This document shows, in pieces, positions 1 to 23,723 of a stretch of DNA of 36,643 nt. Each line of letters starts with the position of its first letter. Positions within the stretch are counted from its first letter, which is position 1. A program made the translations under genes and the position numbers. Origin of the DNA: Planctomycetota bacterium (GTDB lineage: Bacteria; Planctomycetota; SZUA-567; H5-PLA8); assembly GCA_050010835.1 (NCBI GenBank), contig JBEKKG010000001.1, positions 1 through 36,643 of the forward strand, in the 5' to 3' direction. The notes below the pieces were generated by a model. The model did not search any database. It had not been told where the DNA came from and saw nothing but the letters and a program-made list of their open reading frames with translations.

Positions 1-1
1 C

Positions 2-121
2 TGCTGGCGTTCCGCGCGCTCAGGCGTGAGCCATATCGATTTTGGTTTCGGCGGATCGACCACGGACGAGATGCTGACCACGATGAAGCGGTTCCACGAC
101 GAGGTTTTGGCGCGGACCTGA
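2..121 (+). CDS. 3' end of an upstream gene (partial, runs off the left edge); the tail resembles C-termini of luciferase-like (LLM) flavin oxidoreductases
   Basis: The frame is open from the window edge to TGA at 119-121. Translation: ...GVSHIDFGFGGSTTDEMLTTMKRFHDEVLART*. The family guess rests only on recall of similar tails. Confidence 0.25.
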   Translation, partial: CWRSARSGVSHIDFGFGGSTTDEMLTTMKRFHDEVLART

Positions 122-165
122 CGAGCCGTGCGTACAGCCAGCGCTACCACGCGCTCATCACCTTC

Positions 166-633
166 GTGAAGAACAAGGGCAACATCGTCTGCATCCCCAC
201 CGCGGCCGGCCCGGGCGACAAGCGCGACCTCTTCAAGTTCCTCCAAGAGGGACGCAAAGAGGGCGTGGTCTTCAAGCTGCGCGACGCGCCGTACATGCCC
301 GGCCGTCCCAGCAGCGGTGGCACCCAGCTCAAGCACAAGTTCTACGCCACGGCTTCCTGCATCGTGGCCAAAGTCAATGACAAGCGCAGCATCGCGCTGG
401 AAGTGTTCGCCAACAAGAAGGAGCGGATTGAGGCTGGCAACGTCACCATCCCGCCCAACCAGCCCATCCCCAAGGAAGGCGCCGTAGTGGAAGTCAGATA
501 CCTCTACGCCTACAAGGAAAGCGGCCGCCTCTACCAGCCCACATACCTGGGTGTGCGCGACGACATCGAACCGCGCGCCTGCACCACTGCCCAAATCAAG
601 TACCGCACGCCCAGCGAAGAAGACGAGGCGTAG
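166..633 (+). CDS. ATP-dependent DNA ligase fragment with nucleotidyltransferase motifs IV-V and the OB fold (motif VI) only; the KxDG adenylation motif is absent
   Basis: EGVVFKLRDAPYMPGRPSSGGTQLKHKF matches motif IV (EGxVxK) and motif V (LKxK). YQPTYLGVRDDIEP is motif VI-like. The ORF starts right after the stop of the preceding gene, leaving no room for motifs I-III. Confidence 0.6.
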   Translation: MKNKGNIVCIPTAAGPGDKRDLFKFLQEGRKEGVVFKLRDAPYMPGRPSSGGTQLKHKFYATASCIVAKVNDKRSIALEVFANKKERIEAGNVTIPPNQPIPKEGAVVEVRYLYAYKESGRLYQPTYLGVRDDIEPRACTTAQIKYRTPSEEDEA

Positions 634-690
634 CGCCACAACAAACCAGGAACAAGCATCTCCCATCTCTCAAACTAGAAAGGAAAACCG

Positions 691-1455
691 ATGGCAACCA
701 AGACCAAAGCCTGCAAGCCCAGCGCCACTGCACAGGACCAGCAGGCCGAAGTACCGCCGCCGCCTGAACCGGCCGAAATCACCGGCCAGGACCTCAAGCG
801 GGTAGCGTTGTGTACGAACAACTCGCCCCAACGCTGGACTCTCAACTACATCGAACTCAGCCCCCTCGGCCTCGCCGCTACCAACGGCAGGCTGCTGTGC
901 GTCCTCAACGCGCCAGGCTGGCCGTACCAGTGCTACCTCGAACCCAGGAGCCTCAAGGGCGTCCCCAACGACGCCAAGCTCGCCATCAACGGCGCAGTGC
1001 AGTTCGTCGGCCGCGGGCAAACCATGATGGTCGTCCCTCACGAAAACCCTGACCAGGTCACGTTCCCGAAGTGGCAGTCCATCCTGCCAGAAGCCTGCAA
1101 TATGCAGCCCCTCGCCACCCTGAACGCCTCGCTCCTGCGCACGCTGGTCTCGGCATTGCTGCGCACGCCGGACAGCAGCCTCACACTCTATGCCAAGCCC
1201 GATGACTGCCTCTCACCGGTGATGCTCGTCAACGAAGCCGGCGACCTCGGGCTTATGATGCCGGTCATGCAAGACGAAGGCCGCGAGCCGCTGTGCTACT
1301 TCCCCACGACCGTATATCAAGCCCTGCGGCTGGACACAAAGACGTTGCCGGCGGTATTCATCCCCAGGACTCCTAAAGTTATGCCAGCACCTTCCGCCAA
1401 TGGCCCGGCCCCTACCTCTTCCTCCGGCAACGGCGGCGGATCATTGCTGGGCTAA
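691..1455 (+). CDS. DNA polymerase III beta-clamp (DnaN)-like domain protein, shorter than a full clamp
   Basis: LAATNGRLLCVL, FPKWQSILPE and LGLMMPVMQDE parallel the DnaN signatures ATDGHRLA, FPDYRRVLP and YVVMPMRL. AAAGGAAA lies upstream of ATG 691. The tail is Pro/Ser/Gly-rich. Confidence 0.5.
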   Translation: MATKTKACKPSATAQDQQAEVPPPPEPAEITGQDLKRVALCTNNSPQRWTLNYIELSPLGLAATNGRLLCVLNAPGWPYQCYLEPRSLKGVPNDAKLAINGAVQFVGRGQTMMVVPHENPDQVTFPKWQSILPEACNMQPLATLNASLLRTLVSALLRTPDSSLTLYAKPDDCLSPVMLVNEAGDLGLMMPVMQDEGREPLCYFPTTVYQALRLDTKTLPAVFIPRTPKVMPAPSANGPAPTSSSGNGGGSLLG

Positions 1456-1527
1456 TCCTGGAGCACCAGGCGCTCTCCTCACCAAGTGGAGGAGAGCGCC
1501 CCGCGGCGCACTCATCCGGAGGACAAA

Positions 1528-1818
1528 ATGAAACTACTGACCAAGGAGCTGCGGGCCAAGCTCCCGCCGCTGTACAGTTGCGAGAAGGACAAAGACCCCG
1601 TCGCCGTCGCAAAGTTTTTTCACCCTATGAGTCAGTGGACTTGGTACGCAACCGAGTTCGATGGCGAAGACCTGTTCTTCGGTCTGGTCATCGGTCATGA
1701 ACGCGAGCTCGGCTACTTTTCGCTGAAGGAGCTTGAGTCCATCGGCAAGAACGGGAAGACGTTGCCTATCGAGCGCGACCTACACTTCAAGCCCACGCCG
1801 CTGAGCCAGTGTGACTGA
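1528..1818 (+). CDS. DUF2958-family protein (common on plasmids/ICEs)
   Basis: [59 protein letters not shown] matches the remembered DUF2958 consensus. GGAGG lies 5 nt before ATG 1528, so the ORF-track start at 1486 is probably too early. Confidence 0.75.
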
Positions 1819-1884
1819 GGCCCGGCAAGGTCCGACAACACAATTCGGCATTCGTTTCATTCATCTTCTTTGCAGGGAGCTACC

Positions 1885-2226
1885 ATGCCATCGCAAACAG
1901 TCAGTAATCATCGTGGCGCGCTGGACACCAACGAAGCGGTGTTGCGCCGGTATCCACGCATCTGCGCGCACCTCATTTGTGAGAGCCTGGGGTATGCGAC
2001 GCCGACGGTTGCAGCGTCTATCCTGCGCGCAGCTATTCACAAACAACAGCACTTCTGCGAGTGGCTGATGAGCTGCTACCAGTGCAACCCAGTCGTCCCC
2101 GTAACCCGCGCCATCCGCTACCGCAGCCACCATCGCGGTTACATGAGCGAATATGAAACGGCCATCCGGCTCGTGCGCGAAGCAATCCAGAGCGGCAACG
2201 AGCCGATTTTTGCATCCTGGTTCTAG
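1885..2226 (+). CDS. Hypothetical protein
   Basis: It is co-directional with the neighbouring operon, and GGGAG lies 5 nt upstream of ATG 1885. I recognise no motif. A competing antisense ORF (1861-2262) is judged a GC-shadow. Confidence 0.4.
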   Translation: MPSQTVSNHRGALDTNEAVLRRYPRICAHLICESLGYATPTVAASILRAAIHKQQHFCEWLMSCYQCNPVVPVTRAIRYRSHHRGYMSEYETAIRLVREAIQSGNEPIFASWF

Positions 2227-2371
2227 CTTAACTCTAGTTAAGCATCCCAGTCGTTCCATCAAGCAGGCAACACCGGGCAGGCACGCCGACTGATCCGTGG
2301 CAGCGCTGTCGCGGCGGCGTGTTGGCCCAAGGAAGACCGTGCCCTGAAAAAGGGCGGGAAGGAGTAGCAGT

Positions 2372-2599
2372 ATGGCAGTCTCAATTCGTCATGGCGTGAA
2401 CACCATCAACGCCGACAGTGTCGCGGGCAGGACCATCGCCGAAATCCGCGAGCAGGCCGCCGAGATCCTCAACGTCCCGGATAACGCGCAAGTGCGCGTC
2501 AACGGTTCGCCCGCGGCGGAAGACGCGGTGGTCGCGGACGGCGCCACCGTCGAGTTCGTCAAGGTCGCCGGCGAGAAAGGCGCCGAAGCCAACGCCTAA
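2372..2599 (+). CDS. Ubiquitin-like beta-grasp protein (ThiS/MoaD-like; PRTRC protein C-like)
   Basis: The 75-aa product contains ...VRVNGSPAAEDAVVADGATVEFVKVAGEKG-AEANA, typical of small beta-grasp Ubls with a Gly near the C-terminus. A strong RBS (GGAAGGAG) is present. It sits directly upstream of the E2-like, JAB and E1-like genes. Confidence 0.7.
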   Translation: MAVSIRHGVNTINADSVAGRTIAEIREQAAEILNVPDNAQVRVNGSPAAEDAVVADGATVEFVKVAGEKGAEANA

Positions 2600-2713
2600 G
2601 AAGTCCGCAGTAGCCATGTACTCTGTGCGGGAGGTGCCGTGTATCGCCACAACGATGCGGGCCCTCCCGCGCTTGTCACCACACCAAGACCAACGAAAGG
2701 GAGAAACCCCGTC

Positions 2714-3436
2714 ATGCCTGCCAAGACAACCGCCGCACCCGAGACACACAGCCTGGTCATCGAAGGCAACCTGGTCCGCTTCACCAAGACCATCGTCGAA
2801 CGCCAAGTACGCACCAGCGACTTGCTGACTGAACTGGGCCGCATGCAACCGCTGGACACCGGCCTCTTGCCCCGCGGCTGCATTGCATTCTCGCGCTGCA
2901 ATGACAGCCGCAACCAAGTACACGCGCTCTATGCAATCGAACGCCCCGCCGGCTTGGTCTGCATTCGCTACAAGAAAGCGGGCAGCCAGGAAGAACAGAA
3001 GGACGACAACATCATTTCGTTGACACTCTCCTGGCCGCACACCATTTGGCTCGTCCACTGGACAGGACCCGCCATCAGCGACCTGTACGTGTGCTGTGCC
3101 AAGGCGCCGATACAGAGCCTCGAGGACGCCATCTTCGTCCTGCCCATGCCCAACATCTACGACAGCGGCCATGCCGGAGTGTGTCTGGGAAACCTAACGC
3201 TCCCAGATGCGAGCAGCCCCAACATCCGCTCCGTCTTCCTGATTGAGACGGTGCTCACGTCCTTGTGGAACATTGACCTGCAGCCGGATTATGAACCCCT
3301 GGGCTTCAAGTCTCTAGAAGAATGGGCGGAGCGCAGCGCGGCAGACGGACAATTCGGGCTCAGCCTGGACTACAAGCCGCACCACGCCAACACCTTGGGC
3401 AATCTCATGGCCACCATTCTAGGGGAACCGGCGTGA
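2714..3436 (+). CDS. E2 (UBC)-like protein with a candidate catalytic Cys (PRTRC protein B-like)
   Basis: MPNIYDSGHAGVCLGNL resembles the eukaryotic E2 HPN...G-x-ICL active-site stretch (Cys codon at 3182-3184). AAGGGAGA lies upstream of ATG 2714. Position is between the Ubl and the JAB gene. Confidence 0.6.
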   Translation: MPAKTTAAPETHSLVIEGNLVRFTKTIVERQVRTSDLLTELGRMQPLDTGLLPRGCIAFSRCNDSRNQVHALYAIERPAGLVCIRYKKAGSQEEQKDDNIISLTLSWPHTIWLVHWTGPAISDLYVCCAKAPIQSLEDAIFVLPMPNIYDSGHAGVCLGNLTLPDASSPNIRSVFLIETVLTSLWNIDLQPDYEPLGFKSLEEWAERSAADGQFGLSLDYKPHHANTLGNLMATILGEPA

Positions 3437-3545
3437 ACCCAAGCGCCCACAGAAGTACCGCCATTACCTGCAGGAAATGCGCGAGGAACTGCGCACGCAG
3501 ATGCGCTAAGTGGATGTCGCATTTCATGGAAAAGGACTGCGAATC

Positions 3546-3722
3546 ATGACTCAAAGGACGATCATCCGCCTGCAGCAAACACGCCCCAAGTGCCGCTGTG
3601 GCCGGCTTGCCGACCGCTTCTTGCACGGCAGTTGGGTCTGTCTCTGCTGCCACCCTTTCAAGCGCCCAAGAAAGAATCGTGAGCCCTGCCGCACCGCGCC
3701 GGGACGCTCGGCGACATCGTGA
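3546..3722 (+). CDS. Possible small zinc-ribbon protein
   Basis: MTQRTIIRLQQTRPKCRCGRLADRFLHGSWVCLCCHPF... carries CxC...CxCC cysteines, and AAAGGA lies upstream. It fills the 3437-3744 gap, but it is short and in GC-rich sequence, so support is weak. Confidence 0.25.
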   Translation: MTQRTIIRLQQTRPKCRCGRLADRFLHGSWVCLCCHPFKRPRKNREPCRTAPGRSATS

Positions 3723-3744
3723 CCACCCTTCTGGGAGAAACATC

Positions 3745-4113
3745 GTGAACCCCAAAATGCACAAGACCATTCTGGCCGCGCTCAACCGCTGCCGCAACAT
3801 CACCCCGACAACTCTCGACGATTTCCTCGGACCGCTTCTGGACCGCGACCCCGACGATCTCGCCCGTCTGCCTGGCACGCCCGGCACTGTTCTGGCCGCG
3901 CAGTTCACCTGCTACGCCAAGAGCAGCGTCAGCCTGTCAGAGGTGCTGCGCCGCCAAATGGAACAAGCCGGCAAACTCACTGACGCGCTCTGGCGCATCC
4001 CCGCGCCCAAGCAAACACAACCCCAAAACAACCAGACTGAGGAGGCAAACCGTGATCCCGATTCTCTGCCTGACCAAAAACAGTGCCTCGCCTGCGCTGC
4101 TCAGTGCGCCTGA
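3745..4113 (+). CDS. Hypothetical protein, a cassette-internal gene between the E2-like and JAB genes
   Basis: GGGAGA lies 5 nt before GTG 3745, and an in-frame ATG at 3757 is an alternative start. The ORF-track start at 3598 gives an implausible N-terminus. I recognise no motif. Confidence 0.4.
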   Translation: MNPKMHKTILAALNRCRNITPTTLDDFLGPLLDRDPDDLARLPGTPGTVLAAQFTCYAKSSVSLSEVLRRQMEQAGKLTDALWRIPAPKQTQPQNNQTEEANRDPDSLPDQKQCLACAAQCA

Positions 4114-4888
4114 CCGCGCCGGCGACTCGCGCAGCCCGCCCAATGGCATCCATTACCTGCTGGCCAAGAGTGGCATCTACAAGGAAGTCAAGAACGCTTT
4201 CTATTCGGCGCGCGTCAAGGTCAACGGCATCAGCCACCTTGAAGACACCAAGGACAGCGTGGAACTGCACGTTCCCAAGCTGCCGCTTGTCCTGTTACGG
4301 CAAGCGGAAGCATTCTTTGTCGCCGCGTACAACCGATACCACTCCGAAGCAGTCGTGGTCTTGCTCGTAAGCCCGGCCAGCGGCCAGTGGCGCCTGGAGG
4401 TCCCTGACCAGAAGGTCGAAGGCGGAAGTCTTCACGTCGCCTATGACCCGACATCCGTGGCTGTGCCCGGGGGATTTGAAATCTTCGGCACTATCCACTC
4501 CCACGCCAGCGCCGGCGCGTTCCATTCCAGCACCGACGACCGCGACGAAGCGTGCAGCGACGGCCTGCACATCACCGTAGGCAATGTGGACAAGCCCATC
4601 CACAGCTATGCTGCCCGTTGGATGATCTGCGGCCAGGCTTTCCCGGCGGAGATCGAGGCTGTCGTAGAAACGCCTGCTTTGCCGGCAATTGACCCTGCCT
4701 GGCTGGAGAAAATCCACGAGGCTTGCCTGCCTCCGTTCGAGGTAGAGAACCTCTGGGGTGACGGTCCCGCGCGCGGGATTGACATGCCAGGAATTGATCC
4801 CGACATCCCGGACGAAATGCAGGCCGAGTACGAAGACTTTATGTGGGACGCCCACCAGCGCTTCGTTGACCGCCTGCCGCGACGTTGA
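4052..4888 (+). CDS. JAB/MPN (JAMM) metallopeptidase (PRTRC protein A-like)
   Basis: An exact JAMM motif HSHASAGAFHSSTD (H-x-H-x7-S-x2-D) spans 4496-4537, with upstream Glu candidates. GAGGAGG lies 6 nt before GTG 4052. Confidence 0.8.
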   Translation: MIPILCLTKNSASPALLSAPDRAGDSRSPPNGIHYLLAKSGIYKEVKNAFYSARVKVNGISHLEDTKDSVELHVPKLPLVLLRQAEAFFVAAYNRYHSEAVVVLLVSPASGQWRLEVPDQKVEGGSLHVAYDPTSVAVPGGFEIFGTIHSHASAGAFHSSTDDRDEACSDGLHITVGNVDKPIHSYAARWMICGQAFPAEIEAVVETPALPAIDPAWLEKIHEACLPPFEVENLWGDGPARGIDMPGIDPDIPDEMQAEYEDFMWDAHQRFVDRLPRR

Positions 4889-4986
4889 CACTTAAGCATC
4901 TCTCTCCCTGTGGGAGAGGGAAGGGTGAGGGCGTTCTTCACCTTGGCTCTTTCACATCACAATTCTCATTCATGGAGGCACAACGC

Positions 4987-5754
4987 ATGTTGAACTTCGT
5001 TCAGCACATAGTAGTCATCGGGCTGGGCGGCATCGGTACGTGGTTTGTGACGCCGTTCGCACGTTTCCTGCACGAACAGCGCTTCGGCGGCGAACTGGTC
5101 ATGGCCGACGGCGACACCTTCTCCGCGCTCAACGCCCATCGCCAGGACATGGAAGCCACGGACCTGGGCAAGCACAAAGCCGCCGCCCTGGCCGAACGCT
5201 TGAGCCGGACTATGCCCGGTCTGCACATACGCACCTTTACCGAGTACGTCACAGCCGACAACGCCGCCCAAGTGGTGAAAGAGAAGTCCCTAGCGATCGT
5301 CGCGGTGGACAATCATCCGGCCCGCGCCACTGTTGCCCGGCACGCCGCCAGCTTGAATGACGTGTGCGTGCTCTCAGCGGGCAACGAGAAATACGACGGC
5401 AACGTACACGTGTATCTACGCCGCGCCGGCAAGGATCTATGCACCTCGCTCTTGGAACGGCATCCTGAGATTGCCAAGAGCCGCAGCGGCGACCGCGCCA
5501 CGTTGGGCTGCGATGAGCTTATCACTCTGGGCCAGCCGCAGTTGCTTGTGACCAACTTCCTGGCCGCCACAGCCCTTCTGGTCGCGTTTCATGCTCTCTG
5601 GGACAGGGATGCCCTCCGCAGATCGCGCGTGAACCGGCCGTCCGGACTGCCCCAGGAGATTTTCTTCGACGTGCGTGCCCAGGCCATGACGGCCATCGCT
5701 ACGCCGATACAGCACGAAGTCCCATTGCCTGTACCTGCAGCCATCGCCAACTGA
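4987..5754 (+). CDS. ThiF/MoeB-family E1-like adenylyltransferase (PRTRC ThiF-family protein)
   Basis: It has a Rossmann motif VVIGLGGIGTW, followed by DGDTFSALNAHRQ and VAVDNHPAR as in ThiF/E1 adenylation domains. GGAGG lies 8 nt before ATG 4987. No CxxC zinc pairs are seen. Confidence 0.8.
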   Translation: MLNFVQHIVVIGLGGIGTWFVTPFARFLHEQRFGGELVMADGDTFSALNAHRQDMEATDLGKHKAAALAERLSRTMPGLHIRTFTEYVTADNAAQVVKEKSLAIVAVDNHPARATVARHAASLNDVCVLSAGNEKYDGNVHVYLRRAGKDLCTSLLERHPEIAKSRSGDRATLGCDELITLGQPQLLVTNFLAATALLVAFHALWDRDALRRSRVNRPSGLPQEIFFDVRAQAMTAIATPIQHEVPLPVPAAIAN

Positions 5755-5829
5755 CCGCACCGGCCTGTTCAACGTGGTGCCCGGATCAATTACGGCCGGG
5801 CACCAATGTTCAATTGTGGAGACATCCTC

Positions 5830-6582
5830 ATGCCTGTTTGCTTGCTTTGCCCTGAGCGCTTGACAACAATCAATGAAGTGCCGGACGACTGCAGTGAGAC
5901 CCTTGATGTTAAAGACCGGCGAGACGACTACTACAGCGAGGACGGAGACGGCGTGTGGGTTGGCGCTTACCTGGAATTCCTCGAAGAACTCGTCCGCGCG
6001 CGCTGCCACGAGCCTGACTTCCGCTTCTCCGATTATGACTGCGTAAGCCAGGACGTTCTGGACGAGATTGACGACCGCTATACTCGCAGACTGATCATTG
6101 CGTTCACCAACGAACACTATGAGCCCTGGCGCGACAAGGACGTCACTTTGCCCAACTACGACGATGTACGCTCTGACTGCCGGGATTTCTGCGATGACTG
6201 CGATAGCGGATGGACAGAGATCCACGGTGAATACGACGGCCCCTTGGCTGAGGATGTCGAGAAGGACGAGGACGAAAACGAGGCGGGTATCTCTGAGGAG
6301 GAACGAGCCGCGCGCCATCGGCGCAACCTTGAGCGCCGGCGCGAACGCGAACGGCGACGCCAGGCACAGGAAGACGCTGAAAGCGAAATTGTGGACCGTG
6401 AACTAAACTGCGACGACGAGTGTGACTCGTTCTACGAGCACCTTTCAGACATCTTCAGGGAGCGCGTTGATTTAGACCTGAAAGCCCTCAAACAACGCTG
6501 GGAAGCCTTCCTGGAAGACGCCGGCGAGTCAGTGATGCCTGAACTACAGCCTCAGCCACGCTTTCTGCACCGTCCACCTTGA
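5830..6582 (+). CDS. Highly acidic, Cys-rich protein with a central Arg/Glu helix (function unknown)
   Basis: It has long D/E runs (DDYYSEDGDG, EDVEKDEDENE), Cys clusters (CRDFCDDCDSGW, NCDDECDS) and ERRRERERRRQAQED. GGAGA lies 8 nt before ATG 5830. The antisense ORF 5437-6318 is judged a shadow. Confidence 0.6.
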   Translation: MPVCLLCPERLTTINEVPDDCSETLDVKDRRDDYYSEDGDGVWVGAYLEFLEELVRARCHEPDFRFSDYDCVSQDVLDEIDDRYTRRLIIAFTNEHYEPWRDKDVTLPNYDDVRSDCRDFCDDCDSGWTEIHGEYDGPLAEDVEKDEDENEAGISEEERAARHRRNLERRRERERRRQAQEDAESEIVDRELNCDDECDSFYEHLSDIFRERVDLDLKALKQRWEAFLEDAGESVMPELQPQPRFLHRPP

Positions 6583-6713
6583 CCAGATAAGACTGCAGGC
6601 CATGGCCCGTACAGCCCTAAGCCGGCTGACGGGCCATGCGCCTCTGAGGACGCTCGTGAGAAAGTGGCAGGGGCGGTTCTTTCTCTTTGGCCTATTGCTT
6701 TCTATATGGAAAG
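6427..6713. repeat. Direct repeat R1, copy A (3' end of the acidic-protein gene plus ~130 nt of downstream non-coding sequence)
   Basis: Aligned by eye with 7247-7527, identity is roughly four in five positions with one 6-nt gap. Shared blocks include tcgttctacgagcac, ggccatggcccgtacagcc, gaaagtggcaggg and attgctttctatatggaaa. Confidence 0.85.
6601..6638. other. Conserved imperfect hairpin inside R1 copy A
   Basis: catggcccgt-a-cagcc / ctaagcc loop / ggctg-acgggccatg gives 15 paired bases with one bulged A. Confidence 0.7.
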
Positions 6714-6803
6714 GAACTTGTTGGCACCCCGGCCAGCCTGTGTTGGTGGCCGGAATTCAGGCAAAGGCTGATTGGCACGGCGCGTTGTTACCGTGAACCA
6801 ATA

Positions 6804-7193
6804 TCAGTCGATATATCGCCTCAGTTCTGTGAGTAACTCATCATCCCCTGTCGAGGCAGGCTTACGCAAGACTTGGCGTAAAGCAGCCGCGAACTTCATG
6901 CGGTCGCGGCGCAGCGTCCTCTTTACCTTCGCAACACTCCAGCCCAGAGCAAGCCCCGTGTCTTCGTAGTTGGCTTGACCGTTGCTGGCCGAAGCAATGT
7001 GCTGCTCCAGCACGCCTACGTAATCCAGAGGCCCGTGCGCGGCGCATGCTTCATCCATTTGCGCCATTCCGCGCTGCACGGAAACCTGCACCAGTTCGCG
7101 CAGGGCAGCCATTTCCGGAGTCTCGTCCGGCACCTCACCGCCCAGCCTGTCTTCAAGTTCCAAATGTTCAAAGGGGTCTGTCATTGTCATCAC
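6804..7193 (-). CDS. Small protein with a C-terminal sigma-70 region-4-like HTH; N-terminus paralogous to ORF 21262-21657
   Basis: LALGWSVAKVKRTLRRDRMKFAAALRQVL resembles region-4 HTH segments. The N-terminus MTDPFEHLELEDRLGGEVP is shared with the 21.6-kb paralogue. The true start is probably the conserved ATG at 7184. Confidence 0.55.
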   Translation of the reverse strand: MMTMTDPFEHLELEDRLGGEVPDETPEMAALRELVQVSVQRGMAQMDEACAAHGPLDYVGVLEQHIASASNGQANYEDTGLALGWSVAKVKRTLRRDRMKFAAALRQVLRKPASTGDDELLTELRRYID

Positions 7194-7240
7194 CGAGGAT
7201 CGCGTAAGCGGCAGAGTATTTGAGCTTTTCGGAACCGCTG
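7132..7240. repeat. Repeat R2, copy X (first ~17 codons plus ~50 nt of leader of the small minus-strand gene)
   Basis: It aligns by eye with 21596-21705. Shared blocks include agcctgtct, atgttcaaagggg, tctgtcattgt, ataagcgg and agtatttgagctt. Confidence 0.75.
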
Positions 7241-7402
7241 CCCCTTTCGTTCTACGAGCACGTTCCCAACGTCTTCAGGGATCGCGTTGATCTCGACCTC
7301 AAAGCCCGCTGGGAATGCTTCCTGGAAGATGTCGACGAGTCATCCATGCCAGAACTCCAACCCCAGCCACGATTCCTGGAGTGTCCAGCTTATAACCCAT
7401 AG
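7220..7402 (+). pseudogene. Remnant copy of the last ~55 codons of the acidic-protein gene (5830-6582)
   Basis: SFYEHVPNVFRDRVDLDLKARWECFLEDVDESSMPELQPQPRFLE versus SFYEHLSDIFRERVDLDLKALKQRWEAFLEDAGESVMPELQPQPRFLH. The N-terminal ~200 codons are missing. Confidence 0.6.
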
Positions 7403-7527
7403 GAGATGGCAGGCCATGGCCCGTACAGCCCCAAGTCGGCTGACGGGCCATGCGCCCCGGGTATGGTGCGAAGAAAGTGGCAGGGACGGTGTTTTCTTTT
7501 GGGCTGATTGCTTTCTATATGGAAAAG
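7247..7527. repeat. Direct repeat R1, copy B
   Basis: See copy A. Copy B begins immediately after repeat R2 and ends about 130 nt before the SNF2 gene start. Confidence 0.85.
7415..7452. other. Conserved imperfect hairpin inside R1 copy B
   Basis: The stem arms and bulged A are identical to copy A, but the loop differs (ccaagtc versus ctaagcc). Confidence 0.7.
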
Positions 7528-7654
7528 AGCTCCTGCGTTCCTCTTCATTTTGTGCCGTGCGCCTGTATACCTGCTGCCATCCATGCCTTGGCAGCCTACG
7601 CTTGATTGGACCACGAGAAGTGCGAAACTCCAAAGACTGGCACTGGAGGGGATC

Positions 7655-10600
7655 ATGAATGACCTCATTCGCATGGCGACGCCCGAACTGGCCCGGTTCC
7701 TGAACGCCAAGTTTCCGGAGCTGGCGTCAGAGTGGTGGCAGAAGCATGTGGTGGATCGCCTAAGTTTCCAACAGCAACGGATGGTGCAGGAGCGAGGCCA
7801 CAAGACCCTCCAACAACTCGACTTTGCGGCCTTACTGCGCGTGTTTGACCAGAACTGGTATGAGCTTTCCAACGTGCTCAGATTGCCTCGCGAAGGCCGG
7901 ACTTGGGTGAAGGAACTGCAGACCGTCCGCAACAAGTGGGCGCACCTTTCCGCGGAAGCGATGCCAGCCAGCGATGTTTATCGGGATGCTGACACGCTCA
8001 GCAAGCTGTTGGTGATGATCGAGGCCCCTCAAGCATCCCTGGATTCCGTAGAGGCGCGCAAAGCCACTGCTGTAGCCGCGATGGCGAGCAATAAGAGCGG
8101 CACGGTTGAAGCATCCGCGAAACATGCCAACGAACCGGTCCCCCTTCGCGCCAATACTCCTCCGCTTCCTGCCACCCTGTTCAGTGTGGGAGACCTCGTC
8201 GCCCTTCGGTCGAATCCCGCGACGATTCTTCCCGTGATTGAGGTGATTCCCGGTGGTGGCGAATGCCGCTATCGAGTGTTTCAGAACAACGCCAAAGCAA
8301 CGTATTACGAAAGCCAGTTGCAGGCCCCATCCGGCGCGGCGGATAAGCGTAGAACGCTTACCGCCCGTGAGCTGCAAGCCCACCTGACGAGTCTTCAGAT
8401 TCTCTCGCCTTCCACCGCGAACCTCTTTTCCCTGCGTTCGGGGCGGGTTAAGTTTGTACCCTACCAGTATCGGCCGGTGCTCAAGCTCATCCGTTCTGAC
8501 CGCCCCCGCCTCCTGATCGCGGATGAGGTCGGCGTCGGCAAGACGATCGAAGCCGGGTTGATCATCAAAGAGCTGCGGGCACGGATGGATCTTTCGTCGG
8601 TGCTGATTATCTGCCCCAAGGCGCTGGTGGCTGAACGAAAGTGGTACCTGGAGATGAAGCGCTTCGACGAACACTTTACCGCGCTTGATGGCGGACTGCT
8701 TCGGCACTGCCTGCATGAGACGCATCTCGAAGGGGAATGGCCCGAGCAGTATGCCAAGGCTATCCTGCCTTTTTCCCTGTTTGATTCTGATCTCATTTTT
8801 GGCCGCACAGAACCGCGCAGACGAAGAGATCAGGCCTTGCTGGGCCTCGACCCGCCGCCAAAGTTCGATCTGGTTATTGTGGATGAGGCCCACCACATTC
8901 GGAACTCTGAAACCTTCCTGCACCAAGGGGTGCGCTATTTCTGCGACAATGCCGCTGCGGTGCTCTTTCTCACCGCAACGCCTGTTCAGTTGGGCAGCGA
9001 AGACCTTTATACCCTGCTCAATGTGCTGCGGCCTGACCTTGTAATGGATCACGCCAGTTTTGAGCAGATGGCCGCGCCTAACCGCCATATCAACGCGGGA
9101 GTTCAACATTGCCGCGCCACCCGCGTGGGCTGGCAGCGTGAGGCCCGCGCCAGCCTGGATGAAGTCGCTCAAACCGACTGGGGAAGCCTATTCCTGCGGG
9201 AATCACCGGCTTTCCAGAGCATCTACGACCGTTTACAGGGAGATTCCGTCTCTGATGCGGATCGGGTTGGACTAACCCGCGCCATTGAAGAGCTTTACAC
9301 CTTCAGTCCCTTGATCAACCGGACGCGCCGCCGCGACATCGGCGAGTTTACGACCCGAAAGCCAGAAACTGTCCCCATCGAGTTCACTCCAGCACAGAAG
9401 AAGCTCCACGACGGCCTGCTGGATGTGGTCGCGCGGATTCTCGCCTTCTGCCACGGCCAGCAAAACGTCAAGTTTATGATGACGACCATTCGCCGGCAGG
9501 CAGCAAGTTGCCTCTACGGCCTTGCTCCGCTTCTTAACGACATCCTGACCGGCAAGGTCAATCAACTCGAAATGATGGAGGCCAGCGACGACGAACAAGA
9601 CGCTGATTTGAGCTTCGTTGACCAGGTGCGGACTGACATTGCAGCCATCCTTGAACAGGCCCGCGACCTAGACCCGCACGACCCCAAGGTTGAGGCATTT
9701 GCTAAAGTCCTGAAGGAAAAGGGCAATCTGCCAAACAATAAGGCTCTCGTCTTCAGTACGTTTCGCCACACCCTGGCCTACCTCGCCCAGCACACGCAGC
9801 CCACAGGATTGCGCTACGGATTGATTCATGGCGATGTGCCTGATGACGAACGCACCGAAATACGCCGCCGCTTTGCCTTGCCCAAGGAAGACGTCGACGC
9901 GCTCGACGTGCTGCTTTCATCCGAGGTGGGGTGCGAGGGTCTCGACTTCGAGTACTGTGACTTTCTCGTCAACTATGACCTGCCTTGGAATCCCATGCGG
10001 ATTGAGCAGCGCATAGGCCGTATTGACCGCTACGGCCAGAAGAGTGAGACCGTTGCCATTGTTAATCTCATCACCCCCGGCACTGTGGATGCCGACATCT
10101 ACCAGCGCTGCCTGTGGCGCATCGGTGTCTTTCAGCACGCAATTGGCGGCAACGAGGAAATCCTCGGCCAGATCACCCAGGAACTCCACGACATCGCCGA
10201 GAGCTTCACCCTGACCCCGGAGGAACGCGAGCAACGGCTCCGCCAACTGGCGGACAATGGCATCCGCCTGATTCGGGAGGAACAGGAAATTGAATCCAGA
10301 CAAGCCGAGTTGTTCGGCCTGAATGTGCCGAACCAATCCTGGCAGCATGAGATCGCAGCGGCGGAAAGTTACTGGCTTTCCCCTCCCGCCATCCAGCGTT
10401 GTGTTTCGTCTTACCTGTCGGCGCGGTTGGCCACTGGCGCCGATCATCTGGTGGGCGAAAGGCCCCTCAAGACTCTGCGCCTCAGCCAAGAGGTCAGAGC
10501 TAAGTTGCTCGAAGATTACAAATGCCTGCCGCGCTCTGCCGAACCCGTTTCCCGCGAATGGGAGAAATGGCTCAAGGGCGGGCAACCGGCCTTGGCCGTC

Positions 10601-11230
10601 ACGTTCGATCAGGAAACCGCGGCTGCAAACCCCCAAGCCGTTCATCTATCAGTCATGCACCCGCTGGTGCGCCAGGCAGCCCGCTTCCTGCAACTTGACG
10701 AGCCGGCCTACACTACACTCGCGGTGCCAAGCCACGAAATCCCGGCCGGTGCCTATTGCTTCGCACTCTATCGCTGGAAGACGCACGGCGTGAAGTTGGA
10801 CGAGTTTCTAGTCCCGGTGGCCACCAATGCCGCAGTTGAAAATGCGCTGCTTGCGCTTCTGCAATCCGCCACAGACACCGCATGCGCCACACTCCCGCCG
10901 CACACTGAGTTCGATGCACTTGATGTCCTGCATCACCGCAAGTGGACCGCCGCGCGGGCCGACCACATTACGGCAAACCGCCAGCAGATCGAGCATCGCA
11001 TCCAGAGCCTGACGGTCAGCCACGGCGCCCGCTGCAAGGCGATTGAAGACCAGATTGCTCGCGCCACGAATGACAAGATCAGGCTGATGAGACAGAGTGA
11101 ACTGGCCCGGGCCAACGCTGACTTCAACCGGCGCATGGCCGAGCTTCAGCAAGCAGGCGGCAGAGGCGACATCCATGCCACCGCTGTGCTGTTCGGAACT
11201 ATCACGGTCACGAAAGGGGGAAGCCAATGA
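7655..11230 (+). CDS. SNF2-family helicase with an N-terminal Swt1-like HEPN domain
   Basis: HEPN motif RNKWAH (R codon 7928-7930, H codon 7943-7945). SNF2 motifs: LIADEVGVGKTIEAG, DLVIVDEAHHIRN, LFLTATPVQ, ALVFSTFRHT, SSEVGCEGLDFEYCDFLVNYDLPWNPMRIEQRIGRIDRYGQ. GGAGG precedes ATG 7655. The ORF-track start at 7508 lies inside repeat R1. Confidence 0.85.
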   Translation: MNDLIRMATPELARFLNAKFPELASEWWQKHVVDRLSFQQQRMVQERGHKTLQQLDFAALLRVFDQNWYELSNVLRLPREGRTWVKELQTVRNKWAHLSAEAMPASDVYRDADTLSKLLVMIEAPQASLDSVEARKATAVAAMASNKSGTVEASAKHANEPVPLRANTPPLPATLFSVGDLVALRSNPATILPVIEVIPGGGECRYRVFQNNAKATYYESQLQAPSGAADKRRTLTARELQAHLTSLQILSPSTANLFSLRSGRVKFVPYQYRPVLKLIRSDRPRLLIADEVGVGKTIEAGLIIKELRARMDLSSVLIICPKALVAERKWYLEMKRFDEHFTALDGGLLRHCLHETHLEGEWPEQYAKAILPFSLFDSDLIFGRTEPRRRRDQALLGLDPPPKFDLVIVDEAHHIRNSETFLHQGVRYFCDNAAAVLFLTATPVQLGSEDLYTLLNVLRPDLVMDHASFEQMAAPNRHINAGVQHCRATRVGWQREARASLDEVAQTDWGSLFLRESPAFQSIYDRLQGDSVSDADRVGLTRAIEELYTFSPLINRTRRRDIGEFTTRKPETVPIEFTPAQKKLHDGLLDVVARILAFCHGQQNVKFMMTTIRRQAASCLYGLAPLLNDILTGKVNQLEMMEASDDEQDADLSFVDQVRTDIAAILEQARDLDPHDPKVEAFAKVLKEKGNLPNNKALVFSTFRHTLAYLAQHTQPTGLRYGLIHGDVPDDERTEIRRRFALPKEDVDALDVLLSSEVGCEGLDFEYCDFLVNYDLPWNPMRIEQRIGRIDRYGQKSETVAIVNLITPGTVDADIYQRCLWRIGVFQHAIGGNEEILGQITQELHDIAESFTLTPEEREQRLRQLADNGIRLIREEQEIESRQAELFGLNVPNQSWQHEIAAAESYWLSPPAIQRCVSSYLSARLATGADHLVGERPLKTLRLSQEVRAKLLEDYKCLPRSAEPVSREWEKWLKGGQPALAVTFDQETAAANPQAVHLSVMHPLVRQAARFLQLDEPAYTTLAVPSHEIPAGAYCFALYRWKTHGVKLDEFLVPVATNAAVENALLALLQSATDTACATLPPHTEFDALDVLHHRKWTAARADHITANRQQIEHRIQSLTVSHGARCKAIEDQIARATNDKIRLMRQSELARANADFNRRMAELQQAGGRGDIHATAVLFGTITVTKGGSQ

Positions 11231-11562
11231 GCTTTCTCGATGAAGTCCAAGCCGACAGGCAGGAACTGGCCCACGTCCTGAAAAAGAATCGCGGAATCCC
11301 AAAATTCGTTGAGGATCTTTACCCTGAGCGCGCGCACTTCATTTACCGGCTTCTCGAGAACGCCGAGGACACCCAGCACGCAGGCGGGGGCCGCCCCACA
11401 CTGTCGTTCACGCTCGTGAACCAGGATACATTGCAGATACCAGGCACTGAAGGCGCCCTGATCATCAGCAACGACGGGTTGGGGTTCCGTGCGGAGCACG
11501 TGATGCCCTGTGTGCAGTTCGCAACTCAACTAAAGCGAAACAGGAAGGCTACATTGGAGTAA
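11227..11562 (+). CDS. N-terminal stub of a GHKL (Bergerat-fold) ATPase, in frame with the following giant gene
   Basis: YPERAHFIYRLLENAEDT (N-box-like ELxxNAxDA) and LIISNDGLGFRAEHV (G1-like) are present. The ORF stops before any G2 box. Its start overlaps the SNF2 stop in ATGA at 11227-11230. Confidence 0.55.
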   Translation: MSFLDEVQADRQELAHVLKKNRGIPKFVEDLYPERAHFIYRLLENAEDTQHAGGGRPTLSFTLVNQDTLQIPGTEGALIISNDGLGFRAEHVMPCVQFATQLKRNRKATLE

Positions 11563-11565
11563 ACG

Positions 11566-14500
11566 GTGCAAGACAAAGGCGAGATTGAGGAGTTTGAGTT
11601 TGGCCAAGGCGAACGTCTAACGGTTCGCCTGCACGGCCTCATCCGTAACTACCCGAAGGGACCTGGCATCATCAAGGAGTTCATCCAGAACGCCGACGAT
11701 GCGGGGGCCACAGCCATCAGAATCATACTCGACGGCCGCAATCACCGTACAGAGCGGTTGACAGCGCTGGAGGCTTCGCTTTGGGCGGGCCCCGGCATGC
11801 TCGTATGCAACAACGCGGTTTTCAGCCAAAAGGACTTCGAGTACATCCAGATGATCGGCGAGAGCAGCAAGTATGATACGGCGTTGAAAACCGGGCGTTT
11901 TGGGGTGGGCTTCAACGTCGCCTACAACGTTACTGACTACCCGCTTCTCGTCTCGGCGGACAGTCTGATCTGCTTCGATCCGCACCGAAGCCATCCCCTT
12001 GCCAAGAAAGTAAGACCTGGGTGGGGCTGGAAGCTGGGCCACAAGCTCTGGGAGAATTACCCAGATCTTCTCGCCCTCTTCCACGCTGGCGGGCTACAGT
12101 TCGGCGCACTCTCCCACCCGGGGACTATTTTTCGACTCCCCCTGAGAACTGCCGAACAGGCGAGAGCAAGCAATATCTGCAGTCAGCCGTTTACTATAGA
12201 CGATTTCAAAGCAATTGTCTCTGATGTGGCTAAAATAGCAGGGGATCTACTGCTATTCCTCAAACATCTCCGCTCCCTCAGTATGGAAGTGATCGAGGAA
12301 CAGAGTTCCGAGCCCAAGACTGTATTGCTGGCAAACACGAGCAATGCGGAGGAGGTACAGCTTGCGCGCGACCGAGTCAACGACGTAGCATTAGGGGATT
12401 GCCGCCAAGTACTGAGTACGTTACGGTCTCATCCTGATTCGGCCCCGCACGCAACCTACGACCACAAGATAAGCATCCGGTACTCTGGGGGCGACCGGGA
12501 AGAGACATGGCGAGTCGCCAGTGGCCTGTATGTGGACCGGCGGGCAGACGTCATCAGTGCGGCTGAAGCCATACTTCAGTATGAGGGTAAGGCTTTGCCG
12601 TGGGCTGGTGCGGCTGCCAAGGTGGAGCTTGATGGTGGCCTCAAAAAGCAAATGCGAGTCGTCCCGTTGGAGGACGGCCGGCTCTTCTGTTTTCTTCCGC
12701 TGCCAAGACACGTCCACCTGCCAGTCCATCTGAACGGCTTCTTCGACCTGGACTCATCCCGCGACTTTCCTACAGATGACGAGTCATGCAAGGGCAAGGA
12801 CGCCGACAGAGTTAAGTGGAACCGATGCCTCATGCGGCACAGCGTGTCACAGGCCTATGCGGCCCTCATTTCTTCCCTTGCTACGGAAGCCAGCCATATA
12901 CCAATCGGATACTACGCCATCTGGCCACACTTCGAGATGATGGATGGACTCCTGAAGGAGGTTAGCAAGGCTACTTACGAATACCTTGCAAACCAAGCAG
13001 TCATCAGGATTAGGGGTGGCTGGAAGAAACTTCTGGGCGTCTGGCTTCCCCCTTTGGATAAGTGGCCTGACCTTCAGCAGCCACTAGTAGCCCAGGGATT
13101 GTGGGTTCCCCACCCCCCCATTCCGCAGCACGTAGCCGATGGGTTCAAACTCGCCCCCGTCCGCGTAGATGTACTTACGCCACGGCAGCTCCGCGACCAG
13201 CTTAGGGTAAACACTGATTTGGACGTGCCATTCCGGCAAGCACCGAAGGTCCTGCTGCGCACACGGAAATGGCTTGTCACGCTCTTGAGGTTCTGCTTGA
13301 GCGATCGTCCGACTGATGATCTCGTCGGGTTACCGCTTGCATTGGGCGACGATGGGCATCTGCATACGTTTGGGCACAGCAACGGTGGTCTGACCATCCT
13401 GGCGGGAGAGGACGAGAAGGCCATCTTTCGCAAGTTCCGCCATTGGTTCATCGACTCTCGGTATGCTGCTGAATGCGGGCTCGGCCCTGTTCCAAGAGCG
13501 AAAATTGAGCAGATGGAAGTCAATTTGGTAGTGGCTAACCTGTACAAGATCCTTGATCCTAATACAGAGAAGAAGCCCCTTCGTGAATGGCTGCCCGGTG
13601 GAGAGCAGGCTCCGAACGAATCTTGGTTGATCCGCTTATGGGACTATCTGGGGCGGAACAAGGAACAGATTGCGAGCGGCTCTTACGAGCTTTTGCGGAG
13701 CTTCCCCTTTGTACCGAACCAAAAGGGGCAGCTATGCACCGCCGGCAATGCTCTAACACCGTTGGTGGCCCAGCGTGATATGCCTGGCAAGTTGGATCAA
13801 GCATTGCAGGCGTTTGACGTACCAATGGTGGGTGGCTCGACAGGGCTGATCGAGGCGGCGCGACACCTCGCGGATGCCTTCATTAACCAGAAGATGATCT
13901 CGCACCTCGCGGGGCCAGACTTGGCGGATACGCTACATGCACAGGCTAAGGCGGGGGTAAAGCAACCAACGCAATACGACCCGATGGTTCATGATGCATT
14001 GCTGGAGTTTCTGGCCGACCCACGATGGGAAGGCAAGTATACGAAGGATCAACTGGGCAAACTCTCGGAGCTGGTCATTTTACCAACCATGGACGGCAGA
14101 CTCATATCCGCAAGGGCCGAGAACCTTTTCCTGCCCAGCGGCTTTCAACCACCCCCGTTCGCTACCGGAAGGCATGTTCTGGTGAAGAGGAACGAGCGGT
14201 GGCTCCTATTGCTGCGTATGTTGAACGTACGCTCTCTGGATGCCGCCACGTTTATCCGCGAGGTACTTGTGCCGCTCTACCCGATTCTGGACGAGAAAGG
14301 GCGTTTGAATGCCTTGGCGTGGCTGCAAGACAACCTAACACATATTAAACGAGAGTTGACGGAGCTCAACTCTGAGGGCGCCTCTGCTCTTGACAAGGTA
14401 ATCAAGCAGGCAAGGTGGGTTCAGTGCGAAGACGGCCAGTTGCGGCCTCCGTATTCGGTATATAACCCACACTCTAAGGTTGTCCGTCAGGTTCTTGGAG

Positions 14501-23174: not shown

Positions 23175-23723
23175 TTAACCACGCACCTTCTTCAACTCCT
23201 CAATCGCTCGATCCAGTACCGCCCTGACTCGTTCCTTGACCAGGCGCTCAATAATTTCCAGGATTGGCTCAAGCCGGCCGACCATCTGCGCTTTCTTCAC
23301 TGGCCTGCCCGGCTTCCTAGCCGGCGTCCCTGTGCGCGTGACGAACCCGGTCAGCGCTATGAGCCCGCCTCGATAACCTGCGGCCTTCGCCGCCTGGAGG
23401 GCTTCTGGCCACTTCTTCCCCGTCTTCAGTGCCTCATGGGTGGCGTTGACTATCGCGGCCCTTGTGGCCTCGTTGTAGACGTGGCGGTGCTTCGTGGCCA
23501 CTCCCAGACCTTTGGGTCTGCCGCGCTTGGCTCCTGGCTTTCGGCCAGCCTTCTTGCCTTTCGTCAGGTGGAACATCCCTTTTATGCCGCCCAAGGTTCC
23601 GGTGTAGCCGGCCTCTTTCGCGGCCTTGAATGCATCCCCCCAAGGCTGGCCCGCGACACGGGCTTCGCTAACTGCCTGCAAGAAAGCTGACTTGATGGCT
23701 TCGTCGTAACCTTTGCGTGGCAC
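23175..23723 (-). CDS. DNA-binding protein with two AT-hooks and an internally duplicated ~40-aa module
   Basis: AT-hooks are GRKPGAKRGRPKG and RKPGRPVKK. The duplicated modules are DEAIKSAFLQAVSEARVAGQPWGDAFKAAKEAGYTG and NEATRAAIVNATHEALKTGKKWPEALQAAKAAGYRG. GAGGAGGGG lies upstream of the GTG start. Confidence 0.65.
   Translation of the reverse strand: MPRKGYDEAIKSAFLQAVSEARVAGQPWGDAFKAAKEAGYTGTLGGIKGMFHLTKGKKAGRKPGAKRGRPKGLGVATKHRHVYNEATRAAIVNATHEALKTGKKWPEALQAAKAAGYRGGLIALTGFVTRTGTPARKPGRPVKKAQMVGRLEPILEIIERLVKERVRAVLDRAIEELKKVRG

Follow-up and report, generated by a model that had tools for sequence, protein, structure and literature searches.

The 36,643-nucleotide window analyzed here (positions 1 to 36,643 of contig JBEKKG010000001.1, GenBank assembly GCA_050010835.1, from a Planctomycetota bacterium) contains six tightly packed co-directional genes, which encode a small ubiquitin-like protein (Ubl), an E2-like protein, a protein that we call X, a JAB/JAMM metallopeptidase (JAB), an E1-like adenylyltransferase (E1), and a protein that we call Y, in the order Ubl-E2-X-JAB-E1-Y. 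Conserved residues and gene context suggest that these genes probably form a self-contained Ubl conjugation module, carried on the backbone of a mobile element and sister to the PRTRC (ParB-related, ThiF-related) cassettes, or operon type 6d. All coordinates given below are positions in this window; the cassette occupies 2372-6582 on the + strand. Gene starts were refined using homologs, gene calls on the sister contig L021, and upstream GGAG-like motifs. The six genes are the following:

2372-2599, + strand: Ubl precursor, 75 aa, with a GGAG motif 5' of the ATG
2714-3436, + strand: E2-like protein, 240 aa; the open reading frame (ORF) opens at 2639, and the real start is the ATG at 2714
3745-4113, + strand: X, 122 aa as called (gene call from sister contig L021)
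4052-4888, + strand: JAB/JAMM metallopeptidase, 278 aa, with a GTG start backed by homologs
4987-5754, + strand: E1-like adenylyltransferase, 255 aa; the ORF opens at 4885, and the ATG at 4987 is the likely start
5830-6582, + strand: Y, 250 aa, the sixth conserved gene

The six-gene unit and its products

The conserved unit consists of these six genes, with Y always following E1. Their order is identical in the related loci L003, L005, and L008, and tens of homologs of each of the six genes keep the same order elsewhere; thus, the cassette is not a chance arrangement. In tblastn comparisons, the genes common to the window, L003, and L005 were these six only, and when all called proteins of L003, L005, L008, and L013 were compared with the window, the shared set comprised the six genes, a ligase, and one distant backbone gene. 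The E2-like and Y families are of similar size and are co-located on the same contigs. A preliminary description of this DNA had delimited a complete cassette at 2372-5754. Its gene content, order, and catalytic signatures are borne out by the sequences and alignments, but its extent fell one gene short, because Y (5830-6582) belongs to the unit; likewise, of the one or two small ORFs that it placed after the E2-like gene, just one, X, is real and conserved. The 3' end of X overlaps the start of JAB by 62 nt, and the overlap is also present in relatives. The genes overlap or sit close together and no terminator-like site was found on the + strand inside the block, which is compatible with a single operon. 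Scans for promoters and terminators were uninformative, their counts not exceeding the shuffled expectation.

The first gene product had been described as a 75-aa beta-grasp Ubl, and structure prediction and comparison agree. When its AlphaFold2 (AF2) model (pLDDT 83.9) was searched with Foldseek, the top 50 matches in the Protein Data Bank (PDB) were all ubiquitin, NEDD8, ISG15, MoaD, or SAMP (including SAMP1), with a probability of 1.0, TM scores of 0.6-0.7, and rmsd values of 2.1-2.8 A over ~70 columns. None of the hidden Markov model libraries searched (NCBIfam, Pfam, and PADLOC) recognized it. The protein belongs to a family of 68 homologous clusters, 71-90 aa long (nearly all 71-76 aa), in which an invariant C-terminal motif, EFVKxAGEKG, is followed by a variable, nonconserved tail of 1-6 residues in 35/35 aligned sequences. 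Gly70 of this motif (codon 2579-2581) is invariant, and in the window protein it precedes the five-residue tail AEANA. Because the invariant AGEKG is followed by a variable tail, the Ubl bears the signature of a precursor that would be trimmed to Gly70. The tails themselves differ between subgroups: after the conserved Gly, Ubls of L003/L008-type loci carry Cys-containing tails (for example, VVSCSA, AVCCSV, and VVGCS), and the remaining tails are short and Ala/Arg-rich. An orphan 90-aa Ubl homolog was also found in L010/L011, among unrelated genes.

The E2-like protein contains both the HPN-like stretch (PNIYDSGHAGVCLGN) and the candidate catalytic cysteine (codon 3182-3184) named in the preliminary description. 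Conservation of this cysteine had been set in advance as a check able to refute the E2-like assignment: both Cys157 and Asn147 (3152-3154) proved invariant among close (21/21) and diverse (75/75) relatives. The spacing between the two fits the ~8-10 residues that separate the (H)PN asparagine from the cysteine in E2-type proteins; the residue before Pro-Asn is Met or Leu, and the classical HPN histidine is lacking. Downstream of Cys157 lies the motif S-x-W-N186-x-D188-L. The close family comprises 26 clusters, none of which has a Pfam domain on record, and its invariant positions include Pro146-Asn147, Cys157-Leu-Gly159, Trp185-Asn186-x-Asp188-Leu189, Trp204, and His223. The wider family, collected in a profile search of 1.84 billion representatives, amounts to 766 relatives at E<=1e-3. 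In a wide alignment of 75 sequences, Pro53, Asn147, Cys157, and Gly159 are invariant, and Asn186, Asp188, and Leu189 are present in 73-74/75; His223 is invariant in the close family only and occurs in 47/75 of the wide alignment.

Profile-profile comparison relates this family to PRTRC: the 75-sequence E2-like profile aligned with a genuine PRTRC B protein with the active sites in register (hhalign probability 89.9%, E 1.7e-6). The window protein had no match at E<=0.01 to the NCBIfam PRTRC_B model (TIGR03737, cut-off 131.45 bits), and distant members of the superfamily scored 20-28 bits, below this cut-off. The sole recurrent Pfam match was Prok-E2_D, seen in 8/21 members (best E 0.005, 17 bits versus a cut-off of 25). 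The position that is occupied by F-T-H in PRTRC B holds W-N-x-D in the E2-like family. In the AF2 model (pLDDT 82.6), a helix is followed by a six-stranded meander, a loop with the PN...C residues, and three to four helices. Searched against BFVD, this model matched five uncharacterized phage proteins that are predicted to fold in the same way (E 3e-9 to 1e-4), among them A0A7R7G2H5, A0A6J5P0Y8, and a protein of Acinetobacter phage vB_AbaM_ME3; some of these matches are 438-621 aa long and may be fusions. More distant E2-like proteins were also seen in differently built operons in L029 (Logan SRR24297604, a 76.9-kb contig) and L027/L028. One operon encodes E2, proteins of 92 and 403 aa, ThiF, and a 219-aa protein, in this order, on a contig with many small genes; another encodes E2 and proteins of 142 and 197 aa beside an IS605 OrfB/TnpB gene. 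These distant operons suggest that further unclassified variants exist.

The JAMM motif (HxHx7Sx2D) reported previously is intact in the JAB sequence and alignment: residues E99 and H149-x-H151-x7-S159-x2-D162 are invariant in this clade and in two PRTRC A proteins. JAB matched the PRTRC_A model (TIGR03735) with 52.2 bits (E 5.6e-14, cut-off 101.8) and Pfam Prok-JAB with 25.0 bits, exactly at the cut-off of 25. Its N-terminal domain of ~95 aa aligns with the extra N-terminal domain of PRTRC A, with the Arg and Trp columns ambiguous in this alignment of only 6 sequences, and its C-terminal extension of ~80 aa is absent from PRTRC A.

The assignment of the fifth gene product as a ThiF/E1-like enzyme with a GxGGxG motif also stands: the protein has GLGGIG from position 5020, Arg52/Gln53, Asp108, and Cys175 (5509-5511, counting from the start at 4987), and it matched Pfam ThiF with 78.9 bits (cut-off 28.1). 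Features common to E1 and three PRTRC ThiF proteins are GxGGxG, Asp, Asn, Arg-Gln, Lys, Asp, and a Cys in the C-terminal half. CxxC zinc motifs and rhodanese are both absent from the E1 sequence. The preliminary description had raised the question whether the enzyme instead groups with sulfur-carrier biosynthesis enzymes. By score, the PRTRC_ThiF model (TIGR03736; 57.5 bits, cut-off 144.75) is tied with the generic NCBIfam ThiF model PRK08644 (58.6 bits), and the best matches among PDB sequences were ThiF, TcdA, and MoeB, with PDB E1s reaching E 2e-13. By coverage, E1 matches 85% of the PRTRC_ThiF model (positions 6-213 of 245), whereas ThiF, MoeB, NEDD8-E1, and Cap2 cover only its Rossmann half in the PDB profile search.

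The two remaining proteins, X and Y, have no counterparts among known families. X has a core of ~100 aa that is conserved at the same position in L003, L005, and L008, with the motif LDDFLxxLLDxDxDxLAxLPGTPG...AQFxxYxxSSVxL. The Y family consists of 27 homologous clusters, found on contigs that carry E2-like and Ubl genes; its invariant residues form CxxC (Cys121/124) and Cx3C (Cys194/198) motifs and include His204, and an Arg/Glu-rich helix lies between the two Cys motifs. Y is strongly acidic (pI 4.35, 72 acidic versus 34 basic residues, net charge about -38). No similarity of X or Y to PRTRC E or F, Pfam domains, or PDB sequences was found; judged by sequence, they are new components, private to this cassette.

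Comparison with PRTRC, Bil, and other Ubl systems

The closest known system is PRTRC, or operon type 6d, and the cassette is probably a distant, unnamed, deep-branching sister of it. The likenesses run through all four core components. Both systems have a small beta-grasp Ubl that ends in FV[KR]xAGxKG plus a short tail; in both, the E2-like protein stands alone, contains PN...C-x-G, and lacks the HPN histidine, a JAB with an additional N-terminal domain is encoded directly upstream of a short ThiF-type E1, and the C-terminal half of E1 has a conserved Cys. They also share carriage on mobile DNA and, in at least some loci, a WGR-ligase neighbor. The Ubl resemblance is confined to the C terminus: the motif is the only part of Ubl that aligns with PRTRC C (hhalign probability 39%), and Ubl did not match the PRTRC C model (TIGR03738). 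The end of the window Ubl, FVKVAGEKGAEANA, compares with FVRAAGAKGNHA in PRTRC C, and the canonical protein C of a Ralstonia plasmid, which ends in YKFVRAAGAKGNHA, shows the same design of motif and tail.

The two systems also differ. The PRTRC order is ParB-E-C-F-B-A-ThiF, versus Ubl-E2-X-JAB-E1-Y in the cassette; X and the acidic, Cys-motif-bearing Y replace ParB, E, and F, and neither is present in PRTRC loci. The cassette JAB has a C-terminal extension, WNxD replaces FTH in the E2-like protein, and the hosts are Planctomycetota, whereas PRTRC hosts are Proteobacteria, Bacteroidota, and Firmicutes. PRTRC_A and PRTRC_ThiF were the only specific NCBIfam matches in the cassette, both of them below the cut-offs (52 versus 102 bits and 57 versus 145 bits), and the B and C models were silent. 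The cassette is not PRTRC as defined by NCBIfam (TIGR03735-TIGR03741): every model and the accessory genes fail. The preliminary description had fitted the cassette to PRTRC; PRTRC does remain the closest named system, on the strength of remote homology in E2, JAB, and E1 and of the Ubl C terminus, but membership does not hold.

The broader 6d class is a closer fit. As originally delineated (Iyer, Burroughs & Aravind 2006, PMC1779556), its operons encode a small beta-grasp protein whose C-terminal glycine is highly conserved, an E2-like protein with a conserved Cys and an absolutely conserved downstream histidine but no classical HPN histidine, a JAB extended at its N terminus by an alpha+beta domain (containing conserved Arg and Trp) beside an E1 without rhodanese, and an additional novel alpha-helical protein with conserved charged residues. 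The cassette has most of these features and lacks the downstream histidine, because W-N-x-D occupies the F-T-H position. X sits at a place comparable to that of the 6d alpha-helical protein but is dissimilar to PRTRC F.

The gene order had also been said to mirror that of Bil operons. This likeness extends to the general logic: both systems combine four activities (Ubl, E2, JAB deubiquitinase, and E1) with a Ubl precursor trimmed by the deubiquitinase (PMC10557695), and trimming of the BilA precursor to its C-terminal Gly by BilC has been shown experimentally (PMC10557695). It does not extend to the proteins, since the PADLOC models for BilA, BilB, and BilC were silent. Ubl, E2, X, JAB, and Y matched no PADLOC model, and E1 matched BilD with 19.1 bits (E 1e-4), over profile positions 207-320 of 453, the Rossmann part only. 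Further differences from Bil are an E1 of 255 aa that lacks a mobile Cys domain, a Ubl with just one beta-grasp domain, and the additional genes X and Y. With Type II CBASS Cap2/Cap3 and 6A-MBL systems the cassette shares a homologous E1 adenylation domain and a JAB partner; E1 matched PADLOC E1-E2 models with up to 38.8 bits, and Cap2 is among its PDB matches. In those systems, however, E1 is fused to E2 and the cyclase itself serves as the conjugated 'Ubl', whereas the cassette has separate E1 and E2 proteins and a dedicated Ubl. Finally, a beta-grasp carrier and a Rossmann-type adenylating E1 are also found in ThiS-ThiF and MoaD-MoeB, which have no E2-like protein, JAB, or mobile context and in which carriers end in GG and the E1 has CxxC or rhodanese; the cassette Ubl, in contrast, ends in EKG plus a tail, and its E1 has neither feature. 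By these comparisons, the cassette is not Bil, not CBASS-type, and not a sulfur-carrier pathway.

Distribution, mobile context, and defense cargo

In a collection with one genome per species (185,579 species), relatives of the cassette were found at seven loci in three Planctomycetota metagenome-assembled genomes (MAGs), with 2-3 copies in each, and close relatives were found only in Planctomycetota MAGs and metagenomes. Comparison of window positions 1-7300 with plasmids in PLSDB by megablast returned nothing, as did tblastn searches of phage records with the E2-like protein and JAB. The best explanation is that the cassette is part of the backbone of a Planctomycetota mobile element, and so far it has been seen only on mobile DNA of that phylum. 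A decayed copy is present in L004 (GCA_037975565.1), where Ubl is followed by fragments of 92-110 aa instead of E2, and the JAB and E1 genes are uncalled.

Neighboring genes change from locus to locus. L005 has an integrase and a PDDEXK nuclease, with a WGR-ligase after Y; L003 has a recombinase, a RuvB-like AAA protein, DUF2201, and, ~3 kb upstream of the cassette, a protein with a weak ParB_N match; L014 has a terminase-gpA-like ATPase and an AAA protein; and L008 has a TrwB-like protein, with NERD-kinase and MAD7 conflict-system genes preceding the cassette. A search for tRNA genes, as possible markers of an integration site, found none. In the window, three genes upstream of the cassette, all of which also occur on sister contig L021, are as follows:

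1-633, + strand: WGR + ATP-dependent DNA ligase, 3' part; a linked neighbor outside the core (the ORF cut by the window start is complete at L021:2394-3470)
691-1455: 254-aa ORF, present also on sister contig L021
1486-1818, + strand: DUF2958 protein (Pfam PF11171, 61.1 bits); a linked neighbor

The preliminary description had named DUF2958, a ligase, and a clamp-like gene as neighbors; the first two are confirmed, but the 'clamp-like' label for 691-1455 was rejected as unsupported, since searches of Pfam, NCBIfam, PHROGs, and PDB sequences all came back empty. Two Rhodanobacter plasmids encode a WGR protein with 34% identity to the ligase immediately 5' of canonical PRTRC (E 1e-44 for one of these plasmids). 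A WGR-ligase as an obligatory PRTRC partner was considered and rejected, as plasmids of Mycolicibacterium, Variovorax, and Rhodoferax do not carry it next to PRTRC.

The part of the window that lies downstream of Y carries defense cargo. The border is marked by an imperfect direct repeat of ~300 bp (78-88% identity) at 6427-6718 and 7247-7531, consisting of the duplicated 3' end of Y and ~140 bp downstream of it, with a minus-strand ORF (6804-7193, 129 aa, domainless) between the copies; the repeat looks like a recombination or insertion scar where the cassette meets variable cargo. A gene pair spans 7508-17484: the first gene encodes a 1240-aa protein with a Swt1-type HEPN and an SNF2 helicase, whose best PADLOC match is DrmD (371 bits), and the second a 1972-aa sacsin-domain protein that matches TmtA (Tiamat) with 426 bits. 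Farther along are a Ppl-like protein with PHP and an ABC/SMC-type ATPase (26776-29469), a protein with Schlafen AlbA_2 and HATPase_c_4 (29478-30713), and a complete Gabija pair (GajA, 31020-33290, 910 bits; GajB, 33287-35224, 794 bits). The stretch at 23190-23486 (- strand) has a homolog (39% identity, E 5e-15) in L003, a 107-aa gene located ~5 kb downstream of the cassette, and because of this match the element backbone seems to resume after the inserted defense genes.

Predicted mechanism, role, and significance

The conserved residues allow a biochemical cascade to be well inferred. First, JAB would remove the Ubl tail and expose Gly70, as suggested by the invariant AGEKG with its variable tail and by the Bil precedent. 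Second, E1 with ATP would adenylate Gly70, and, given its conserved motifs, it may form a thioester at Cys175. Third, Ubl would be transferred to Cys157 of the E2-like protein, where Asn147 and Asn186/Asp188 would line the active site. Fourth, and speculatively, Ubl might pass to a lysine of a target, with Y (zinc-type and acidic) and/or X acting as a specificity factor or as the substrate itself. Fifth, JAB would presumably also reverse the conjugates. As for its biological role, the module most likely serves the life cycle of the element itself (establishment, maintenance, or conflict with the host or rival elements), and a role in host metabolism is unlikely. We favor a role in element biology because the six genes are constant while their neighbors vary, because several copies occur per genome, and because PRTRC is found in a plasmid and integrative and conjugative element (ICE) context: canonical PRTRC loci sit among transfer and maintenance genes of such elements, namely ssb, the MobH relaxase, TraT, and ParB.

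Several observations argue against the picture of a conjugation module on a mobile backbone. The best Foldseek match of the E2-like model in the PDB had E 0.14, with no E2 among the matches; hmmsearch of PDB sequences with the E2-like profile gave chance matches only; and hhalign comparison with human UBE2D2 (query sequence checked to be identical to 1ur6_A) was not significant, at a probability of 3.6%, although the sole alignment obtained places Asn77/Cys85 on Asn147/Cys157. The predicted UBC (ubiquitin-conjugating) fold of the E2-like protein could not be independently confirmed. At 255 aa, E1 is short, and it has no inserted catalytic-Cys domain, which leaves its thioester step uncertain. 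As regards mobility, IMG/VR yielded no relatives in pattern scans based on the E2 and Ubl alignments, and no relaxase or type IV secretion system genes lie within the window; in addition, PHROG scans of the unannotated window genes gave nothing, so a prophage origin is unsupported. Finally, adjacency to defense genes fits a defense role equally well.

Such a role, a Bil-like anti-phage or anti-plasmid defense in which Ubl is conjugated to a structural or replication protein of the invader and blocks it, is an unlikely but serious alternative. The cassette would then be one item of a defense island: the window continues with the DrmD-like HEPN-SNF2, TmtA-like, Ppl-like, Schlafen, and Gabija genes, the L008 cassette is preceded by conflict-system genes, and the known bacterial Ubl systems, Bil and CBASS Cap2/Cap3, are immune pathways. 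On the other hand, the flanking defense genes vary between loci while the six genes are constant, PADLOC is silent on five of the six proteins (with BilD at only 19 bits for E1), the nearest relatives are found among plasmid and ICE transfer and maintenance genes, and the multiple copies per MAG suggest genes of an element backbone.

It is quite improbable that the cassette is a canonical PRTRC whose ParB gene lies beyond the window. The two PRTRC models that matched, the homology of the E2-like protein to PRTRC B, the common C-terminal Ubl motif, the WGR-ligase beside Rhodanobacter PRTRC, and the weak ParB_N protein upstream in L003 would all fit this explanation. However, of the four models, two score below their cut-offs and two are silent, PRTRC loci contain neither X nor Y, the order differs, and F-T-H is replaced by W-N-x-D. 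The window has no ParB gene, as the preliminary description had stated, and neither the window (by tblastn and hhalign) nor the 2.8 kb farther upstream on L021 has a counterpart of ParB, E, or F.

A very small likelihood attaches to the explanation that the E2-like protein is not a UBC-fold thioester carrier and that E1, Ubl, and JAB form a sulfur-carrier or peptide-modification pathway (of the ThiS/ThiF, CysO/Mec+/MoeZ, or MccB type) in which the Cys protein has another role: it would account for the ThiF, TcdA, and MoeB matches of E1 and its tied ThiF scores, for the annotation of some Ubl homologs as MoaD by JGI, and for the absence of a solved E2 among the model matches, but ThiG/H, MoaE, CysM, and rhodanese are missing from every locus examined, E1 has no CxxC zinc motifs, Ubl ends in KG plus a tail rather than GG, Asn...Cys is invariant at an E2-like spacing and superposes on Asn77/Cys85 in the lone UBE2D2 alignment, and the context is mobile.

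With a sister of PRTRC on a mobile-element backbone as the preferred interpretation, a further proposal may be put forward tentatively; we hold it to be possible, if somewhat doubtful. The six genes may constitute a previously unnamed bacterial ubiquitination-like family, so far specific to mobile elements of Planctomycetota, in which Y, with its extreme acidity and a zinc-type site split over four Cys, is a dedicated E3-like specificity factor or the physiological substrate and X an adaptor. If this were true, Y could be a DNA mimic whose activity is switched by Ubl conjugation, and the wider E2-like family, which counts at least 766 clusters at 50% identity and has WNxD instead of the PRTRC B histidine, would be a large unannotated sister radiation of PRTRC.

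PRTRC-type cassettes are widespread on plasmids and ICEs. They were predicted in 2006 (PMC1779556), and the literature searched reports no function for them, in agreement with the earlier remark that their role is undefined. Set beside canonical PRTRC, the cassette shows which components form a conserved core (Ubl, E2, JAB, and E1) and which are lineage-specific accessories, namely X and Y in the cassette and E, F, and ParB in PRTRC; these accessories are the likeliest targets or specificity factors. The cassette also extends standalone E2-type Ubl systems to Planctomycetota and indicates that current NCBIfam, Pfam, and PADLOC models miss a large family of PRTRC-B-like proteins. It offers a compact, complete, and intact variant of such a system, comprising a Ubl precursor, an E1, an E2, a deubiquitinase, and two private partners.

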